Below are positions 1,453-34,599 of a stretch of DNA of 36,292 nucleotides, piece after piece. Every line of letters begins with the position of its first letter. Positions within the stretch are counted from its first letter, which is position 1. This DNA is from a virus (lineage: Duplodnaviria > Heunggongvirae > Uroviricota > Caudoviricetes), in IMG/VR virus record IMGVR_UViG_2877285697_000006, positions 1 through 36,292 of that record; one strand, given 5' to 3'. The notes below the pieces were generated by a model, which was not told the DNA's origin, did no database searches, and was given only the letters and a program-made list of their open reading frames with translations. Position numbers and translations under genes: made by a program.

Positions 1453-1489
1453 GCCCCTATCGTTATAATACGCGGTAGGGGCGTTTTTG
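1453..1489 (+). terminator. hairpin (GCCCCT...AGGGGC) followed by GTTTTT
   Basis: 6-bp GC stem with long loop then T-run, after stop of 1019..1438. Confidence 0.35.
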
Positions 1490-1501
1490 TTTGGAAATGG
1501 T

Positions 1502-3181
1502 ATGAAAACTAAACTGTATTCGTATATTCGCTTCTCGTCTATGCGTCAGAATGATGGTTCGAGTTATGAACGACAAATCAGGATGGCTAGAGAGATTGCG
1601 GTAAAGTATGACCTTGAACTGGTAAATGATTATCAGGATCTGGGTGTATCTGCGTTTAAGGGTGCTAACTCCAAAACAGGGGCGCTATCTCGTTTCCTTG
1701 ATGCAATAGGTAGATCCGTTCCTGTTGGTAGCTGGCTATTCATCGAAAACTTGGACCGTTTATCCCGTGCCGATATTGTCAGTGCGCAGGAGTTATTCCT
1801 TTCAATCATCCGTAGGGGGATAACCATTGTTACTGGCATGGATAACAAGATCTACTCGCTTGATACTGTTACCGCTAACCCGATGGACCTGATGTTCTCC
1901 ATCCTTTTATTCATCCGTGGTAATGAGGAAAGCCAGACTAAGCGCAATCGTACTAACTCAAGCGCACTGATTAAGATTAAAGCTCATCAAGAAAATCCAC
2001 AAAATCCGGCTGTTGCAATCGAGGAAATTGGAAAGAATATGTGGTGGACTGATACCACATCTGGTTATGTGCTTCCTCATCCGGTCTTCTTCCCTATTGT
2101 TCAGGAAGTTGTGGAATTACGCAGGAATGGACGGTCAACCGCCGAGATACTGGATCACCTTAACGCGACATACACACCACCACCAGCCGCAAGTCACAAG
2201 AGGCATTCAAACTGGTCACGGGCAATGATTGAAAGGTTGTTCCATACCCGCGCTTTGATTGGTATCAAGGAAATCTCTGTAGATGGCGTTAAGTATGAGT
2301 TAAAGGATTATTATCCTCGTGTGCTAGATGACGCTGAGTTTTATCACCTTAAGAAAAGCATTGGTGTTAGAGCATGTAACTTTGGAGACAAAGAAGAAGC
2401 TAAACCTATTCCCTTGCTTAGTGGTGTTGGTCTATTGAAATGTGAACATTGCGGTTCCGCTATGGTTAAGGTGAAAGGAACAAACAGACGGCCTAACCAA
2501 TATCGTTATTCATGCGATGCAATGCGCTCTAGTCGTATTGAATGTGTGCATACAAACTGGAGTTTTCGCGGCGACCAATTAGAGAAAGCTGTATTGCAAT
2601 TGCTGGCTGATAAAATCTGGATTGCTGAAGATAAGGCTAATCCGGTTCCGGCTTTGAAAGTACAGATTGATGAAATATCACGCAAGATTGATAACCTGAT
2701 TACCCTTTCTGCTATGACAGGAGCAACGAAGGAGCTAGCCGATCAGATTACTACCCTCAATAGCGAGCGTGAAACACTCTACAATCAACTTAAGATGGCA
2801 GAAGAGGAAATGTATTCTGTTGACTCTCAAGGCTGGGAGAAGCTCGCAGAATTTGATTTAGAAGATGTTTACAACGAGGATCGCATTAAGGTCCGGTTTA
2901 AGATTAAGCAAGCTCTAAAACGGATCGGGTGTAGCAGGATTGACAAGTACAAAAACTTGTTTGTACTGGAATACATCGATGGCAAGACCCAGAGAGTTGT
3001 AATAGAAAATTCAAGAGGACCGAGGAAAGGCCGGATCTTCGTTGATTTGAAGACTATCAATGATAGGCAGATTCTGGAGAGTAACGGGCTTGTTCTGCAT
3101 CCATGTTTAGACATGCTGACAGATAAGAACTGGAAACCAGAAGAAGAAATACCAGGTCCATTACAAGAATTTGGAATTTAA
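1502..3181 (+). CDS. large serine recombinase (serine integrase-like)
   Basis: N-terminal resolvase-type catalytic domain (YSYIRFSSMRQ...LDRLSR), ~560 aa, zinc-ribbon CEHCG...YRYSCD...IECVH; start taken at MKTKLY rather than track start 1487. Confidence 0.8.
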   Translation: MKTKLYSYIRFSSMRQNDGSSYERQIRMAREIAVKYDLELVNDYQDLGVSAFKGANSKTGALSRFLDAIGRSVPVGSWLFIENLDRLSRADIVSAQELFLSIIRRGITIVTGMDNKIYSLDTVTANPMDLMFSILLFIRGNEESQTKRNRTNSSALIKIKAHQENPQNPAVAIEEIGKNMWWTDTTSGYVLPHPVFFPIVQEVVELRRNGRSTAEILDHLNATYTPPPAASHKRHSNWSRAMIERLFHTRALIGIKEISVDGVKYELKDYYPRVLDDAEFYHLKKSIGVRACNFGDKEEAKPIPLLSGVGLLKCEHCGSAMVKVKGTNRRPNQYRYSCDAMRSSRIECVHTNWSFRGDQLEKAVLQLLADKIWIAEDKANPVPALKVQIDEISRKIDNLITLSAMTGATKELADQITTLNSERETLYNQLKMAEEEMYSVDSQGWEKLAEFDLEDVYNEDRIKVRFKIKQALKRIGCSRIDKYKNLFVLEYIDGKTQRVVIENSRGPRKGRIFVDLKTINDRQILESNGLVLHPCLDMLTDKNWKPEEEIPGPLQEFGI

Positions 3182-14393: not shown

Positions 14394-14900
14394 TTAAGAG
14401 ATTTTCAAAGTCTGCTTAGTGCCAGTCTTCTTAATGTTATTGAGGAAAGCAGCCGGAGGATTGCTTAACCAATAGTAATGAAAACCACTTTGCATACTGT
14501 TATAAGGAACAGTGACAGCCGCACCACCCAAATTAACCGTTATATTCCCCGCTCTGCCGTTCTGGAGATATACAGCCATAGTAGGAGTACCACCATTGAA
14601 TTGACCAACGATAACGCCAATTAGACGGCCTACGCCCACGTTTTCGGAGTTCTCCATTGACCCTTTACCGCGCATGTCAGTTACTGGATAGTTAGAAGCA
14701 GTTACACCCCAGTTATTACCCAATGAAGTAGACCACGCAGCAGTAGCTACAACCGTATCCATACCACGACCAGCCATTGCCGACATATTACGCGGAGCCG
14801 GAACTTTTAAAGCTGTTAATGCTTCTTTCATCCATCGCTTACCCGTCACCGATACAGCAGATGACCCGATCCAGCCAGGAACTTTAACGACATTTGCCAT
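14394..14900 (-). CDS. tail protein (major tail or tail terminator candidate)
   Basis: 168 aa, SD GGAG upstream, immediately upstream of G/T. Confidence 0.4.
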   Translation of the reverse strand: MANVVKVPGWIGSSAVSVTGKRWMKEALTALKVPAPRNMSAMAGRGMDTVVATAAWSTSLGNNWGVTASNYPVTDMRGKGSMENSENVGVGRLIGVIVGQFNGGTPTMAVYLQNGRAGNITVNLGGAAVTVPYNSMQSGFHYYWLSNPPAAFLNNIKKTGTKQTLKIS

Positions 14901-15601: not shown

Positions 15602-18600
15602 TTATTTAGTTGCTTTGAGTTCGGCAATCTCTTTAGTCAATGCTTCAATCTTAGCTTGATATTTGGCGTCCATTTCCTGAATAGCTTTAATAATCAAGGC
15701 ATTAACAGCAGAGTTAGAAATAGTCTTAATTGCTTCCGGTTGTTCTGGATCTTCGGTGGATTGAATACCTACTGCTTCCGGCAATACTTCCTCCAGATCC
15801 TGAGCAATAATACCGACTTCGCGTTTAATCACTGTGTCATCGGAAAGAGATTTAACTTTATCGTATGTGTAGACTTTCAGGGAGTTTACTTTCTCTAATG
15901 CGCCGTCCTGTAATTCTTCCTTGTTAATCTTCAAACGGGAGTCAGAGCGAATGTAAACATCGTTAAAGCTACCGTTGCGATGAGCATTAAAATCACCGTC
16001 CATAGTAAATTCCCAGCGTGCTTGCTGCCCGTTGGCGTTATCACCTCGCATACGGATAATACCAGTACGCCAACCGTGAGTCGAACCGCTACCCGTCCAA
16101 CCAAACTCGAAGGACTGACGATAACCAACATCACCTAAGTTACTATAGCCAGCGATAATAGGGAAATATGCACCAGACTCCTTAATACTATCCATGTTAA
16201 CCAAGAATGGAGCACGGTCACGAGTTACATCAGAGATATCGGCATAACCGAAACCGTTTTTGTTGGCAACAACAACACGACGGTTAAATGTAACACCGCC
16301 TGACGTATGGCGAACAACATTAACATTATTAGCGTAGGTATCAAGAACACCATCACCGTTTTGTTTAAATCCAGTATCACTATCGCCTAAAACAATAGAA
16401 TTTCCACCCAATCCGTTAGCAACACCAACACCAAAACCGCTATTAAACTTAGGAATGGTTGCATCCTGACTAATAGACAGTTGGGGAGCGTTAATTTTAC
16501 CGTTTACGCTAAACTCGATTGCGGTAGTACCGGGACCGCCAGCACGCTGTGTGTAGAAATGCCAGCCGCTTTCATCTGCGCATTCTAATACTTGTTTACG
16601 AGTATCATTACCCCATGCACGAATATTGAAGCTAGATTGTCCGGTATTCTTACCCCATCGCATTTGACCAGCAACTTCAAGATCACCTAAGAAATATGCC
16701 TTTAGTCCACCTGTAGCCATATTACGTTCAGTGCTGAAATGTCGGCCTTTACTGTCTTCGAGATATAGAATGTTATCACGGGCATTATTGCTGTCGCCCC
16801 AATGGTTAAACCGGAAATAGTCTCTAGATTGTCCAGCACCAGCATCAAGTGTTAAATGTTGACCTTTGATGAAAGCGTTTCCAGCGAATCGAGCGGCTTT
16901 GCTTGCACGTTCTAACGTTAATGCGTCTCCGTTACCGTCACCGCCTAATTGAACGTTACCGGAAGTTAAATCATAAATGAATGGACGGTAAGTATTCCAA
17001 CCACCAAATTTATCATTTTCAGCCGTTGACAGAAGATAAACTTTAGCGGAGTCATTACGCCAGAATGCACCATAATTGCCGTAAATCATACGAAATGCGT
17101 TATGGTTGGCAGCAACATATTCGCCGTTAGTATAAACTACTTTAGTAGATCCAGTATTCAGAGAGATTTGACCGCTTTGTTCTAAGCCAATATTGTTAGT
17201 ACCGCTATCGTTATACATCTGCATAGCGTTAGTATCGGCATTTCCATAACCAACCCAACCTTGACGCTTATTTGCACCGTTGCGAGTGTCCCAATATTCC
17301 AGATAGTTACTTTGTCCGGTTGGTCGCTGCATACGAATAGTATTAGATCCGGCATCAAAAACAGCTTTACCAGTATACATAGTGCGTCCAGTGATTCGTA
17401 GAACTTCGCTAGAATCGGTAGTGCCAGTCGCTAAACGATATACGTTACCTTGAACAGTTTCATGCCAGATTGTTTCTGCGGCTTTACTACGGAATTTACG
17501 CAGATATTTTTTACCAGTACCTGAATCGTTATTCAAACTGACAATATCATATGTTCCCTGACCGTTATTATCAAACATCAACGTTCCGGCCTTGTTTTCG
17601 GTGTTGAACATTGTAATAACACGTCCATCAGTAACACCAGTAGACGGCTTAACGAGAGTTATTTCAGGAACGTCATGTACCGTCAGTGTAACATCGTTAG
17701 TTTTACCATATTCGACAATAACGTTATCGGTATAACGACCGTAGTTAACGTAGATATCGTAGTTATCACCGGAAGTATTAACCGCAAATACTTGATGAAT
17801 ATTTTTAGCATTTCGACGATAAGCCGCAATACTAACGCCTTTCGGGTTTCCGTTGCCGCTACGAATGACGATTTCTACAAAGTCAACCTGATCATAGGAG
17901 TTAACGTTATAACCGTTACCACCGAAGATACGAAGCATTACCATTCGACCAGTTTGTGGGATCGTGGCGGTTGCGATTTTGAAATAACCGCGAGTCGCAT
18001 CACCAGCCGGAACAGACATTTTAACGTTTTTAACAAACATCTTGTCAACTTCGGCTTTGGTATATGCGCCAATTTCAGCAGGAGTCGGTTTATCCCCTTC
18101 GTGATACATTTTATAGCTAAACGCTTTTTGTCCTTCTCTATCAAAACCATAGGTTTCAACACGAGATCCACCAGACGCATAACGGAAAGTAAATCCGCGA
18201 CCGTGCGCTTTACCGGAAGAGTGAGGAACGTTAAGAGTTAGATCCATGAGTCCATCTTGACCATTGGTACGGAAAGCACCGAAGTAATTAAGATCTCTCG
18301 CGGTTGAATCTTCCAGATAGTTACCAGTCTTGCTATACAAATACGCGCCGTGATAGGTCTTTGTGTTCTTCTTGATGTAAAGAGCATCGTTAGTACCTTC
18401 AATACCATCAATTCGCTTGTTGGCGGCTGCAATCGCTGCGTCGGCACTGGCCTTGTTATTTGCAACAGTTCGTTCAATGGCTGTCTTATTCGCAGAGACC
18501 GTACTAGTAAGACTGGTGATCTTCGTGTCCGCGTCTTTCTTATTATCGGAAACAGTTTTTTCGATCGCTGTCTTGTTCGCGGAGACAGTACCCGTTAAAC

Positions 18601-19210
18601 TAGAAATTTTATTATCAGCGTCGGTTTTATTCGCGGTAACAGTCTTAGTTAAATTGCTAACATTGGTGTTGGTAGCATCGACTCGCGCGTTAGTATTGGT
18701 ATTGTTGGTGTTAACGGTATTAGTAAGAGTAGTGATCTTACTGTCTGCATCTTTCTTATTGTTCGCGACGGTAGTCTCAATCGCTGATTTGTTCGATGCA
18801 ACGGTGTTAGTTAAGCTGGTGATCTTAGTATCAGCATCAGCTTTATTCGCCGTTACCGTCTTAGTTAAGTTGCTAACATTGGTGTTGGTAGCATCAATGC
18901 GCTTATTGGTTGCGGTGTCTTTAGTGGTAATAGTCTGATTCAGTTCAGATTTAGCAGCAGCCAGATTATTAGCGGCTTCTTGTTTGTTGGAAGAAATAAC
19001 ACGGTCAGTGTTGGTTTTATTCTGGTCTACTTTCGTGTTAAGTTCAGCGTGTTTTTCTGGAGAAACACTAATTTGGACTACGTTATTATTTTTGTCTTTG
19101 GTGTAAATCACATGGTCCGCCAGTTGTAAAGCGATCTCACCCTGTGATAATTGTTCCGGCGTTGGTTTTTTACCAGCCGTTTGTGTGCGTTTAAATTGGA
19201 TCGATTTCAT
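15602..19210 (-). CDS. tail fibre protein with C-terminal intramolecular chaperone (peptidase S74-type) domain
   Basis: 1202 aa; ~33-aa repeats (TKTVTANKxDADxKISSLT...); C-terminus SDSRLKINKEELQDGALEKVNSLKVYTYDK...GIIAQDLEEVLPEAV fits the auto-cleaving chaperone motif. Confidence 0.8.
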   Translation of the reverse strand: MKSIQFKRTQTAGKKPTPEQLSQGEIALQLADHVIYTKDKNNNVVQISVSPEKHAELNTKVDQNKTNTDRVISSNKQEAANNLAAAKSELNQTITTKDTATNKRIDATNTNVSNLTKTVTANKADADTKITSLTNTVASNKSAIETTVANNKKDADSKITTLTNTVNTNNTNTNARVDATNTNVSNLTKTVTANKTDADNKISSLTGTVSANKTAIEKTVSDNKKDADTKITSLTSTVSANKTAIERTVANNKASADAAIAAANKRIDGIEGTNDALYIKKNTKTYHGAYLYSKTGNYLEDSTARDLNYFGAFRTNGQDGLMDLTLNVPHSSGKAHGRGFTFRYASGGSRVETYGFDREGQKAFSYKMYHEGDKPTPAEIGAYTKAEVDKMFVKNVKMSVPAGDATRGYFKIATATIPQTGRMVMLRIFGGNGYNVNSYDQVDFVEIVIRSGNGNPKGVSIAAYRRNAKNIHQVFAVNTSGDNYDIYVNYGRYTDNVIVEYGKTNDVTLTVHDVPEITLVKPSTGVTDGRVITMFNTENKAGTLMFDNNGQGTYDIVSLNNDSGTGKKYLRKFRSKAAETIWHETVQGNVYRLATGTTDSSEVLRITGRTMYTGKAVFDAGSNTIRMQRPTGQSNYLEYWDTRNGANKRQGWVGYGNADTNAMQMYNDSGTNNIGLEQSGQISLNTGSTKVVYTNGEYVAANHNAFRMIYGNYGAFWRNDSAKVYLLSTAENDKFGGWNTYRPFIYDLTSGNVQLGGDGNGDALTLERASKAARFAGNAFIKGQHLTLDAGAGQSRDYFRFNHWGDSNNARDNILYLEDSKGRHFSTERNMATGGLKAYFLGDLEVAGQMRWGKNTGQSSFNIRAWGNDTRKQVLECADESGWHFYTQRAGGPGTTAIEFSVNGKINAPQLSISQDATIPKFNSGFGVGVANGLGGNSIVLGDSDTGFKQNGDGVLDTYANNVNVVRHTSGGVTFNRRVVVANKNGFGYADISDVTRDRAPFLVNMDSIKESGAYFPIIAGYSNLGDVGYRQSFEFGWTGSGSTHGWRTGIIRMRGDNANGQQARWEFTMDGDFNAHRNGSFNDVYIRSDSRLKINKEELQDGALEKVNSLKVYTYDKVKSLSDDTVIKREVGIIAQDLEEVLPEAVGIQSTEDPEQPEAIKTISNSAVNALIIKAIQEMDAKYQAKIEALTKEIAELKATK
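18430..18960. repeat. tandem ~99-bp DNA repeats inside the tail fibre gene
   Basis: Repeated units visible on the DNA; produces low-complexity antisense ORFs. Confidence 0.6.
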
Positions 19211-20980: not shown

Positions 20981-21940
20981 TCATTCGCCGATCTGGAGAA
21001 CTTTAAGAGCTTCCGGCTGTACTACAGTGAAGTCAATGTCCAGCCAGATTCTAGGCACGATCGCAGACTGGGCGCGGTACGTTGAATCGTCCAGATCTAG
21101 CTCAAGACCGCCCCACTCACCGATCATGATGCCGCTGTAATCGCCCAGCACGATCGTGTCAGCTGGAATAACACCGGAAGTAATTACATCGTAACCAGCC
21201 AGTTTGCCGTTTTCGATGATATAACCGGAAACGCCGTTATCTTTCAGGGTAGATTCCAGTTCAGCAGCAGTTGCACCGCTCATTGCAAACTTGATGGACT
21301 GTGCCGGAACGCCAGCGTCCGTAAGCTGAGCAATCTCCTTGAGGAAGTCTTTGTAAGAGAAAGCGGCTTTCTTAGTAACGCGACCACCGTCTACCAGTTG
21401 CTTAACCAGACCTTTCGGACCGCGCTCGTTGTCTTTGTCAGACAGAATCAGTTGTTCCAGTTTGATCCGAACAGATTTGTTAATGTGATCAGTGATCAGG
21501 GTAGCGATGCCCGGAACGGTTTTGAGGCTAGCCCTAGAAATTGGGTTCCCGCCTGCGAAAGTTTTCGGAGCCATTTTCACGTTTTCAAAGCTAGCCTTCG
21601 ATTCGGGGGCACTTCCATTTTCATCAACAAAACCAAAGGCTTCGACGCTGGAAGCAGTCATTTTTGGTACTGCAATCGGGCTATTCAGACCAGACAGAAC
21701 AGTCACACCCAGACGACCCAGAACAGACTGTGGAAGCAGCATTTCAACATAGGATTCGGTCAGCAGTTTTTCGTCGGTTACAGCTTCCAGAGTAGCTTTG
21801 GTGTTACCAGCAGAAGCAGCACGCAGAGCAGCAGCCGGAACGAATACAGAGCCACCACGAGCAGCACCGACCACGCTGCATTGCAGCACCAGCAGCCATT
21901 GCGGAATATTCAGCTTCATGAGCACCCAGAGTTTCACCAT
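20981..21940 (-). CDS. major capsid protein (HK97 fold); N-terminus probably supplied by the upstream protease-scaffold ORF
   Basis: 319-aa ORF with strong codon bias and capsid-like sequence; no SD before its ATG; MCP frame has a TGA immediately upstream. Confidence 0.75.
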   Translation of the reverse strand: MVKLWVLMKLNIPQWLLVLQCSVVGAARGGSVFVPAAALRAASAGNTKATLEAVTDEKLLTESYVEMLLPQSVLGRLGVTVLSGLNSPIAVPKMTASSVEAFGFVDENGSAPESKASFENVKMAPKTFAGGNPISRASLKTVPGIATLITDHINKSVRIKLEQLILSDKDNERGPKGLVKQLVDGGRVTKKAAFSYKDFLKEIAQLTDAGVPAQSIKFAMSGATAAELESTLKDNGVSGYIIENGKLAGYDVITSGVIPADTIVLGDYSGIMIGEWGGLELDLDDSTYRAQSAIVPRIWLDIDFTVVQPEALKVLQIGE

Positions 21941-22985
21941 CGATCAGGGAGCGGAATACGTTGTTCAGGTCAAAAGTTTTTTCCATGATTTGTTCCTTAT
22001 TAATTTGTTCGTTATTACGTTGAGCATTGATAATGTTATTTAGTGCCTTAGTGCGGAATGCTTCCGGCGTCATGTCTTTAACTGCCAATGCGCGTTTTAA
22101 TTCTTCGTCGTCAATATTTAGTTCCCGCGCGATCTCGCGAATTTCTAATTCGTCTTCTTCGGAACGTTCAGCCACTTCTTCGATTTTTTCTTCTTCAACC
22201 GGAGCGGCTTCACGTTCTTCTTTTACTTCTTCTGCTTCCCGAACAGTTGAACTATCATCATCAACACTTTCAGGATGTTCAGCGACTTTTCCGTCTTCGA
22301 GATTTTCATTTTCTTCATTCTCTTCAACTTGGCGCTCTTGAGTTTCTTCAACTTTCGGTTCTTTATTTTCTTCTACCGGAGTTTCTTCAACCTGAGCGGG
22401 TTCTTGTTCTTCTTTGATTTCTTCGATTTGTTCTTTAGTCATATCGCGTTTAGCCTCCAAATTAACTGTGATAGTATTTAGAGAGCGATTTAAACCGACC
22501 GTATCGTCAGCAGGAACGGTAACGAAACTTAATTCGTATGGTGCCCACTTAGTAACAATCAATTGCCCTTTGGCGTAATCGATGTGATATTCTTTAATGT
22601 CATAGCCGACAGAAATTTTTTCCATCGTACCTTCAATGACTTTATTACGAACATCATTAGCCAAAGTGCCATGTTTAGAGAATTTAACCAGAGCACGGCC
22701 TACGTTATCCGCATCGATTCGAGCGTCGCAGACTACACCTAAATGATTATCGAAATTATGATTGAACAGCAACGGAGCGTTATTATTCAGACGAGACAGA
22801 TCAACCGCTTCCGGTGTATGTACCAGAATTTCATCTAATACCACCATTTCTTGATTTTGCTCATCCCAAAATTGGCGCTGATAAGGCTGTGTACTTGAGA
22901 AAGCAATTTCAAATTCGTATTGATCGTTATGCCCTTCGTTAATAACTCCACCGTAACCGTTAAGATCGCGGCGAAATTTAAGCAT
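21804..22985 (-). CDS. prohead protease (HK97 S78-type) fused to acidic coiled-coil scaffold domain
   Basis: N-terminal ~180 aa with LLFNHNFDNHLG-type protease motifs, then glutamate-rich region; 3' end (RCCSWWLCIRSGCCSACCFCW) looks like out-of-frame translation of the MCP start. Confidence 0.7.
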   Translation of the reverse strand: MLKFRRDLNGYGGVINEGHNDQYEFEIAFSSTQPYQRQFWDEQNQEMVVLDEILVHTPEAVDLSRLNNNAPLLFNHNFDNHLGVVCDARIDADNVGRALVKFSKHGTLANDVRNKVIEGTMEKISVGYDIKEYHIDYAKGQLIVTKWAPYELSFVTVPADDTVGLNRSLNTITVNLEAKRDMTKEQIEEIKEEQEPAQVEETPVEENKEPKVEETQERQVEENEENENLEDGKVAEHPESVDDDSSTVREAEEVKEEREAAPVEEEKIEEVAERSEEDELEIREIARELNIDDEELKRALAVKDMTPEAFRTKALNNIINAQRNNEQINKEQIMEKTFDLNNVFRSLIDGETLGAHEAEYSAMAAGAAMQRGRCCSWWLCIRSGCCSACCFCW

Positions 22986-33197: not shown

Positions 33198-33241
33198 AGG
33201 TAAATCCTCAAATAAGAAAAAGGTTAGCGGGGGGTGATTCC

Positions 33242-34535
33242 CTGAGGAATCCCCAGAAAACAAGACAGGCATAGTGAGATGTGATCTAATTGATTGTGCT
33301 AACAATTTCAAGGAGATCACCACTATGCCTGCACGTTCATTATGCCAAAATTTCCTTAACAACATACTGGCCCCTTTGCATCTTTACCGTCAAAAATCAC
33401 TGATTGACGCAACTAATGCTGTAATAAATGGCGCTTCCCTCACACTTACCAGTATCGGGCGTCATTTAACCGGTACGGCATCAGTTAAAAACAAAATAAA
33501 GCGGGTGGATCGACTGTTGGGGAATCGACATTTGCAAAATGAGGTTTCCACCATTTTTCAGCGAATTACCCAAAAGATTACGCGGGGAATGTCTCGTGTT
33601 GTGATACTCATTGACTGGAGTGCTTATCATGCCTCTCGTTTTCAGCTTTTGCGGGCAAGCCTGGCATGTGACGGGCGTTCTTTACCGTTGATGAGTTGTG
33701 TCGTTCCATCATCACAGACAGCGAATGCAGATGTACATGAGCGTTTTCTGGAATCGCTTGCTGAGTGCTTTTCCCCCGGGACTGATGTCATTGTTATTAC
33801 AGATGCCGGTTTTCAGGGGCGATGGTTCCAACAGCTCCGCTCCCGTGGCTGGACCTATATTTGCCGGGTACTGGGCAATCATTATTACAATGTTGGTAAT
33901 GGCTGGGAAAAGGTGTCGGACTCAGGCACAAAAGCATCAACGACAGCAATTTATTTAGGTGAAGGCCTGCTGGGTCGAGATAAAAATGCACAACATGAAG
34001 GGCATTTTTATCTTTATAAAAGTAAGCCTAAAGGTCGTAGATTTAAACGCTCGAAGGAAAGAGCAACCAGACCATCGGTGACGGCTAAAGCTCGTACTGC
34101 CGGGAAATCACCATGGTTTATTTTCACAAACAGTACTGAGTTATCGCCAAAACAGGTAATGAAATTATACAGCCGTAGAATGCAAATTGAGCAAAATTTC
34201 AGGGATGAAAAAAATCCTCGCTGGGGATTTGGACTACGGTTTGGTGCCAGTCATTCATCCGGGCGGGTCACGGTATTGAGTCTGAGCGCAACATTAGCCA
34301 GTATCATTATGTGGTTAAGCGGTTTCAGCCTGGAAAACAAAGGGATACATCATAAATATCAGGCAAATACAGTGAAGCACAGGCGAGTCATCTCGCTATT
34401 AAAACTGGCGGAGAATGTGATTCGACATTCTCCACTCATACTAAACACACTGTCACTTGACGCAGGGCTGAAAGTTCTACAGCAACGGTATACCAATATG
34501 ATAATGGTTTACTAAATTTTCTGGGGATCCCTCAG
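33242..34535 (+). mobile_element. IS10-like insertion sequence (IS4 family), about 1.29 kb
   Basis: Terminal inverted repeats CTGAGGAATCCCCAGAAAA (left) and CTGAGGGATCCCCAGAAAA (right, reverse complement), 19/19 with 1 mismatch; flanking direct repeat GGGTGATTCC at 33232-33241 and 34536-34545 (9-bp TSD with 1-bp ambiguity). Confidence 0.85.
33325..34515 (+). CDS. IS10-type DDE transposase
   Basis: N-terminal region ...KNKIKRVDRLLGNRHL closely matches the IS10 transposase as recalled (IKRIDRLLGNRHL); SD AAGGAG; start at MPARSL rather than track start 33274. Confidence 0.85.
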   Translation: MPARSLCQNFLNNILAPLHLYRQKSLIDATNAVINGASLTLTSIGRHLTGTASVKNKIKRVDRLLGNRHLQNEVSTIFQRITQKITRGMSRVVILIDWSAYHASRFQLLRASLACDGRSLPLMSCVVPSSQTANADVHERFLESLAECFSPGTDVIVITDAGFQGRWFQQLRSRGWTYICRVLGNHYYNVGNGWEKVSDSGTKASTTAIYLGEGLLGRDKNAQHEGHFYLYKSKPKGRRFKRSKERATRPSVTAKARTAGKSPWFIFTNSTELSPKQVMKLYSRRMQIEQNFRDEKNPRWGFGLRFGASHSSGRVTVLSLSATLASIIMWLSGFSLENKGIHHKYQANTVKHRRVISLLKLAENVIRHSPLILNTLSLDAGLKVLQQRYTNMIMVY

Positions 34536-34599
34536 GGGTGATTCCCCCCGTAGACGTTGACCAGCTCAACATCTTTCATACATTTATTTATAACGCGCT

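Follow-up and report, generated by a model that had tools for sequence, protein, structure and literature searches.

In phage lambda, the head genes C and Nu3 are nested in frame, and the capsid protein E is encoded by a separate gene. Fused protease-capsid genes are already established as well, both from Gifsy-2 and from a curated NCBIfam fusion family. The gene of Gifsy-2 is a fused tripartite capsid gene (2010, Virology 402:355; as stated in PMC12315714). Precedents for frameshifting in phage structural genes are provided by the +1 frameshifting of Listeria phage PSA (in cps and tsh; Zimmer et al. 2003, cited by PMC4759559) and by the SPP1 tail protein, whose frameshifting is mentioned in the text of PMC4759559. 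Here, we analyzed a window of 36,292 nucleotides, meaning the whole stretch of DNA under study, which carries an Escherichia coli/Shigella prophage. The head gene of this prophage comprises a protease, a scaffold-like linker and a capsid protein, and in the window these three parts do not lie within one uninterrupted ORF, being split by a 1-nt insertion.

The minus strand of the window carries a protease-scaffold ORF (22985..21804, 393 aa) and a capsid ORF (21940..20981, 319 aa), in a gene order in which the fused gene follows a GpA-type terminase and a lambda-type portal. The 393-aa ORF matched Pfam Peptidase_S78 (E = 1e-10) and has a long Glu/Lys-rich stretch after this domain, and the 319-aa ORF matched Pfam Phage_capsid (E = 2e-25). 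The overlap of the two ORFs, which had been pointed out in a sequence-only reading of this DNA, is real, with 137 nt shared (21804-21940), and the capsid frame is indeed +1 relative to the protease frame ((22985-21940) mod 3 = 1). The same reading placed a TGA immediately upstream of the first capsid ATG; the TGA is present at 21946-21944, but one codon (TCG) intervenes before ATG 21940. The 22 nt upstream of this ATG (aacgtattccgctccctgatcg) contain no Shine-Dalgarno-like run, as had been claimed. Residues 1-25 of the 319-aa ORF are protease-frame sequence read out of frame, and many relatives matched this ORF only from residue 26. ATG 21940 is a chance ATG within out-of-frame sequence, not a gene start.

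At the other end of the overlap, the protease frame runs into the odd Cys/Trp-rich tail that had been described, RCCSWWLCIRSGCCSACCFCW, whose 21 residues include 8 Cys and 3 Trp. The DNA of 21804..21866 encodes AARGGSVFVPAAALRAASAG in the capsid frame, which is conserved in relatives, and the tail is capsid N-arm sequence in the wrong frame rather than a real domain. Homology also changed frame where the sequence-only reading had located the switch, an intact E. coli homologue aligning in frame -3 over residues 1-380 and in frame -1 over residues 374-665. Two antisense ORFs lie opposite the capsid gene (21398-21988, plus strand, 196 aa; 21798-22043, plus strand, 81 aa). They are probably by-products of the strongly biased, GCT/GGT-rich codon usage of the capsid gene and not genes. 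The coordinates of the features are given in the table.

Table. Features of the disrupted head gene in the window.
Feature	Position	Strand	Basis
Tripartite head gene over its full, disrupted length: prohead protease, acidic scaffold-like linker and major capsid protein with HK97 fold	20981..22985	minus	Repair, Pfam and relatives
Prohead serine protease domain, residues 40-162	22500..22868	minus	PF04586 Peptidase_S78, E = 1e-10
Candidate internal start at protease/scaffold boundary: GGAGG 22454-22458, 9 nt, ATG 22442-22440 (Met182)	22440..22458	minus	Motif conservation
Acidic Glu/Lys-rich linker, residues 182-333	21987..22442	minus	Sequence composition
Candidate internal start that would yield the capsid part alone: AAGGA 21994-21998, 7 nt, ATG 21986-21984 (Met334)	21984..21998	minus	Motif conservation
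TGA (21946-21944), TCG, ATG (21940-21938) in the capsid frame	21938..21946	minus	No Shine-Dalgarno upstream
Inserted base, one of two neighbouring G (CC on the plus strand)	21867..21868	minus	DNA alignment with 34 relatives
Out-of-frame tail of the cut-short product, CCSWWLCIRSGCCSACCFCW, and TGA stop 21806-21804	21804..21866	minus	Translations
Core of the HK97-fold major capsid protein (repaired protein, residues 410-664)	20993..21757	minus	PF05065, E = 1.5e-24

Comparison with homologous phages had been proposed beforehand as a check, and every relative viewed at the ORF level had one ORF across the junction. A scan of IMG/VR recovered 35 related loci, of which 32 shared 83-96% identity and the other three 44%. 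All 35 contained an uninterrupted ORF of 645-670 codons, starting with MLKF... or MLRL... and including the sequence ...AMQRGRAARGGSVFVP..., and the 32 close relatives spanned the junction with RGRAARGG (...AMQRGRAARGGSVFVPAAA...). A protein search of the phage collection yielded one match, which covered residues 1-331 of a capsid sequence joined by hand and did so in a single frame. Escherichia phage DCP80 (39% identity) has protease, linker and capsid annotated as a single CDS of 2001 nt and 666 aa. The region was present in 44 of 5426 complete E. coli genomes, and in all 40 of the genomes listed among these 44 the matched stretch was a net 1 nt shorter than the query. The copy in E. coli 2014EL-1346-6, which was inspected directly, is a 2004-nt CDS with the RefSeq name 'phage major capsid protein'. 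The extra base was therefore found in none of the 35 IMG/VR relatives, not in DCP80, and in none of the 40 listed complete E. coli genomes.

The exact string bearing the insertion had no match in IMG/VR or in the GTDB representative genomes, and when the phage collection was searched by megablast with the 2.2-kb region, there was no match either. Scanning genome contigs with the 319-aa ORF produced pattern matches and no confirmed relative, and an exact look-up of the 319-aa product found none on record. The DCP80 record (PQ671644.1, 141 kb) is filed under Straboviridae/Gaprivervirus (T4-like), and it opens with a large terminase, a portal-sized ORF and a fused S78-capsid module of the same prophage type. 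It may be a chimeric assembly or misclassified.

The DNA alignment of the junction showed exactly one extra column relative to 34 relatives, with GGTCGGTGCTGC in the window and GGTCGTGCTGC in every relative. The ancestral GGTCGTGCT became GGTCGGTGCT, which changed codon 373 from CGT to CGG and shifted the frame. Deleting one G restored a 667-codon ORF with a single terminal stop, and both Peptidase_S78 and Phage_capsid were found by Pfam in the repaired protein. The repaired protein of 667 aa was 95.7% identical to an intact E. coli protein (P0004) and shared 89-96% identity with the intact proteins (667/668 aa) in its 90% cluster. Of the interpretations offered from the sequence, the alternative of a 1-nt indel error or pseudogenising mutation is thus the one that the data show, as one extra G/C at 21867/21868. 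The single protease-scaffold-capsid polyprotein proposed there fits as a description of the gene, which is one ORF in all relatives viewed at the ORF level. The rare CGG codon noted at the switch is indeed located at the junction (21869-21867), but three more CGG codons occur among the 30 Arg codons of the repaired gene (residues 249, 287 and 506), and the junction CGG exists only because the base was inserted, the ancestral codon being CGT.

The capsid core matched the major capsid protein of PDB 8gta (E = 6e-27), and the protease domain had a weak match to TIGR01543, under the cutoff of that model. The position and Glu/Lys-rich composition of the linker (residues 182-333) suggest a scaffold role. 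Two Shine-Dalgarno-plus-ATG pairs within the gene are candidate translation starts. The AAGGA-N7-ATG motif at Met334 was kept in 36 of 36 close copies, though the surrounding residues vary, and the Lys in this motif is always encoded by AAG, against a gene-wide AAA:AAG ratio of 33:8. The claim that the capsid has no independent start therefore stands for the spurious ATG 21940, but a plausible candidate lies upstream in the protease frame (AAGGA, 7 nt, ATG 21986-21984). Among 34 close relatives, the motif at Met182 read GGAGG in 29 and GGGGG in 5, and the distant homologues DCP80, L034 and L036 (39-44% identity) have AAGGA or AAGG 7-9 nt ahead of the Met equivalent to Met182. These patterns suggest that the Met182 and Met334 pairs may be used as starts. 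We tentatively propose that the intact gene family makes three nested products from one ORF by means of these two starts, which is quite possible, if somewhat less likely than not. The insertion lies 39 codons downstream of Met334, and consequently all three possible products lose the coat domain.

We propose the following explanation of the locus. In the intact gene, one ORF of about 667 codons encodes a prohead protease of the S78 type, an acidic, scaffold-like linker and a coat protein with the HK97 fold. The linker may be a delta-domain analogue in the scaffold position. Through the fusion, protease and scaffold would enter the procapsid covalently linked to the inward-facing N-arm of the coat protein, with self-cleavage then freeing the mature coat protein. 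Nested shorter products from Met182 and Met334 may set the stoichiometry in a manner like that of lambda C/Nu3. In the window, the extra G (plus-strand C, 21867/21868) is inserted in Arg codon 373, within the capsid N-arm, so that translation exits the capsid frame and, after 21 further codons, terminates at 21804. The predicted 393-aa product contains the protease, the scaffold and 39 residues of the capsid, and ends in Arg373 plus a Cys/Trp nonsense tail of 20 residues. The other 294 capsid codons are left with no usable start, and the prophage would probably be unable to build heads.

Several observations bear on whether the extra base is present in the organism. The exact 393-aa aberrant protein, including its tail, is on record as WP_252988524.1/WNT70332.1, 'HK97 family phage prohead protease [Shigella dysenteriae]'. 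Five contigs carried the 393-aa product; two of these exceed 1 Mb, the other three measure 20-50 kb, and the displayed contig occurred in 4 samples. The Logan assembly of run ERR5984642 (a 40.5-kb contig) was 100% identical to the window over 21,182 bases, the insertion included. Logan contigs are built per run from repeated k-mers. A 40-kb contig of this kind therefore implies accurate reads with the extra G and makes a random consensus error unlikely. When the 34 prophage proteins of E. coli 2014EL-1346-6 were compared with the window by tblastn, the frame was split only in the capsid gene, at residues 374-380; the other 33 proteins gave single-frame alignments with no split, some tail-fibre genes aligning only partly. 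Because the capsid gene alone is split, the lesion appears to be recent and isolated. The insertion itself, its uniqueness, its recurrence in several assemblies and the intact state of the other genes are shown here, and we infer that the base arose by mutation, not by error, and that the prophage is defective in head formation. On the whole evidence, it is likely that the insertion is a genuine, recent and lineage-specific inactivating mutation in a Shigella dysenteriae-type strain, with a head-defective prophage and no programmed recoding.

The main alternative is a sequencing or assembly artefact, in which the extra G is not in the DNA of the organism and the fused gene is normal and intact. 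We consider this unlikely. A lone consensus error in an otherwise intact 30-kb prophage would look like the pattern observed here, namely a sole frame break among 34 compared genes, and the doubling of an existing G is a 1-to-2 homopolymer change typical of indel-prone platforms. Neither IMG/VR nor the GTDB representatives contain the allele. The annotation pipeline raised no pseudogene flag for the 393-aa product and named it 'HK97 family phage prohead protease', which speaks against a mutation. The five contigs may also share one strain or even one data set, so that a systematic error is possible. However, the identical aberrant protein occurs in two NCBI accessions and in Logan per-run assemblies, on 5 contigs in all, and a 40.5-kb read-level contig is identical to the window.

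The sequence-only reading gave as one of its alternatives a single polyprotein made by +1 (or -2) recoding, and this was not supported: the break is not shared by any relative examined, re-pairing is lacking and no stimulator was found. It would require that programmed or fortuitous frameshifting at GGU-CGG-U, stimulated by the rare CGG, yields the full polyprotein. The frame relation is +1, a rare Arg CGG is located exactly at the switch, and phage structural genes provide precedent for +1 frameshifting in Listeria phage PSA and the SPP1 tail protein. However, relatives should share a programmed break and none of those examined does (0 of 35 in IMG/VR, DCP80, and 0 of the 40 listed E. coli genomes), which makes a programmed shift unlikely, and it was the insertion that created the CGG at the junction. 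Judging from the sequence of the site, CGU GGU CGG UGC, P-site tRNA re-pairing would be absent in the +1 or -2 frame; neither GGU to GUC or CGG to GGU (+1) nor the -2 options retain two or more codon-anticodon pairs. By eye, no AGGAGG-like stimulator was seen in the ~25 nt upstream of the site. The predicted structure of the 77 nt downstream was no better than that of shuffled sequences (MFE -19.8 against a shuffled mean of -19.4, z = -0.18). Taken together, these results make recoding at this site very improbable. Transcriptional slippage and phase variation were ruled out, the run being GG only, with no long homopolymer.

A related scenario is that the insertion allele is still alive, in that stalling at the new rare CGG allows a low-rate +1 shift that supplies enough full-length polyprotein for some particles. 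In that case a capsid gene would have been rescued by recoding that is new and unprogrammed; we give this scenario scarcely any weight. A frameshifted full-length product would contain a junction peptide such as AMQRG-(G/R)AARGGSVFVPAAALR, across QRG/AARGG. The idea of two truly separate genes, in which the protease-scaffold gene would end at 21804 and the capsid gene would start at ATG 21940 or at a downstream Met, is what gene callers show (the Logan gene calls being 393 aa and a 253-aa Phage_capsid product), but it can practically be dismissed, given the missing Shine-Dalgarno sequence at 21940, the fact that residues 1-25 of the 319-aa ORF and the final 20 residues encoded by the protease ORF are one another's sequence out of frame, the homologues that run continuously over the junction, and the loss of about 80 conserved N-terminal capsid residues that the downstream Met of the 253-aa call would entail.

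Other features of the prophage were also noted. A large serine recombinase with Resolvase, Recombinase and Zn_ribbon_recom domains is located at one prophage end (1487-3181, plus strand). In E. coli 2014EL-1346-6, the prophage adjoins a C-terminally truncated hicB (locus L040, 6363-6671), and this truncated gene at the prophage edge suggests integration into the hicAB locus. The tail fibre (15602-19210, minus strand, 1202 aa) has repeated segments of ~45 aa (…TNVSNLTKTVTANK.DAD.KI.SLT…) and a C-terminal Peptidase_S74 chaperone domain, and is followed by a Gp38_N-like gene (14394-14900, minus strand). In the E. coli relative this fibre module is swapped for different genes, and the receptor-binding region is therefore mosaic.

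An IS4-family element occupies ~33237-34544 in the early region, with 21-nt inverted repeats at 33240-33260 and 34517-34537 and a transposase at 33274-34515 (NF033591, E = 2e-106). It is absent from the prophage copy of E. coli 2014EL-1346-6, and its acquisition fits ongoing prophage decay in an IS-rich Shigella background. In E. coli C325 (NZ_CP124819.1; locus L039, 2976-5810), the same fused gene is truncated by an IS3-family element, which is an independent inactivation of this gene. The IS4 element here and the IS3 element in E. coli C325 represent the usual pattern of prophage decay in IS-rich Shigella/E. coli.

These results have consequences for annotation. The 393-aa WP_252988524.1 and the orphan capsid fragment should be annotated as one frameshifted pseudogene of the fused protease-scaffold-capsid gene, and the prophage is best treated as probably head-defective. 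More generally, overlapping frames with a rare codon where they switch count as evidence of recoding only when the break is shared by relatives. The intact S78-type tripartite family, uncharacterised so far and present in at least 44 complete E. coli genomes, provides a convenient counterpart to the Gifsy-2 gene and could be used for studying how the stoichiometry of protease, scaffold and coat is set.

Compared to systems with programmed +1 frameshifting (PSA cps/tsh and E. coli prfB), the window shares the +1 relation and a slow codon at the shift site, whereas conservation, a shift-prone P-site codon and stimulatory elements are lacking here, and the site was made by the insertion. The resemblance to lambda C/Nu3 lies in the conserved Shine-Dalgarno-plus-ATG at Met182 and Met334, which would give C-terminally co-linear shorter products; however, the capsid protein is fused here and is the separate gene E in lambda, and the internal starts here are candidates. 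The closest match for the disrupted gene is found among the frameshift pseudogenes of cryptic or defective Shigella/E. coli prophages, which likewise have a single-base indel in an essential late gene and an IS in the same element. As in such pseudogenes, an indel relative to intact orthologues cuts the product short, and the window gene belongs with them, nothing of substance differing.

For the intact gene, the comparison is with the known fusions. Residues 22-330 (protease and linker) matched the N-terminal half of NCBIfam NF045541 (E = 6.5e-38), the 'prohead protease/major capsid protein fusion protein' (scaf_prot_MCP2), which is likewise a curated protease-MCP fusion family. The match reached 130.7 bits, far under the 525-bit cutoff, and the capsid half was unmatched, and NF045541 is best seen as a related architecture and not as the same family. 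The Gifsy-2 protease is reportedly ClpP-like. The protease here is of the HK97/S78 type and would thus belong to a different clan. The likeness to Gifsy-2, compared by architecture and not by sequence, lies in one ORF with an N-terminal prohead protease, central ~150-200 residues presumed to be scaffold, and a C-terminal HK97-fold MCP, in a temperate enterobacterial prophage with a lambda-type terminase (GpA) and portal alongside. A further difference from Gifsy-2 is that the ORF of the window is broken by the 1-nt insertion. The S78-type family is a parallel version of this known architecture and is annotated in many genomes already.
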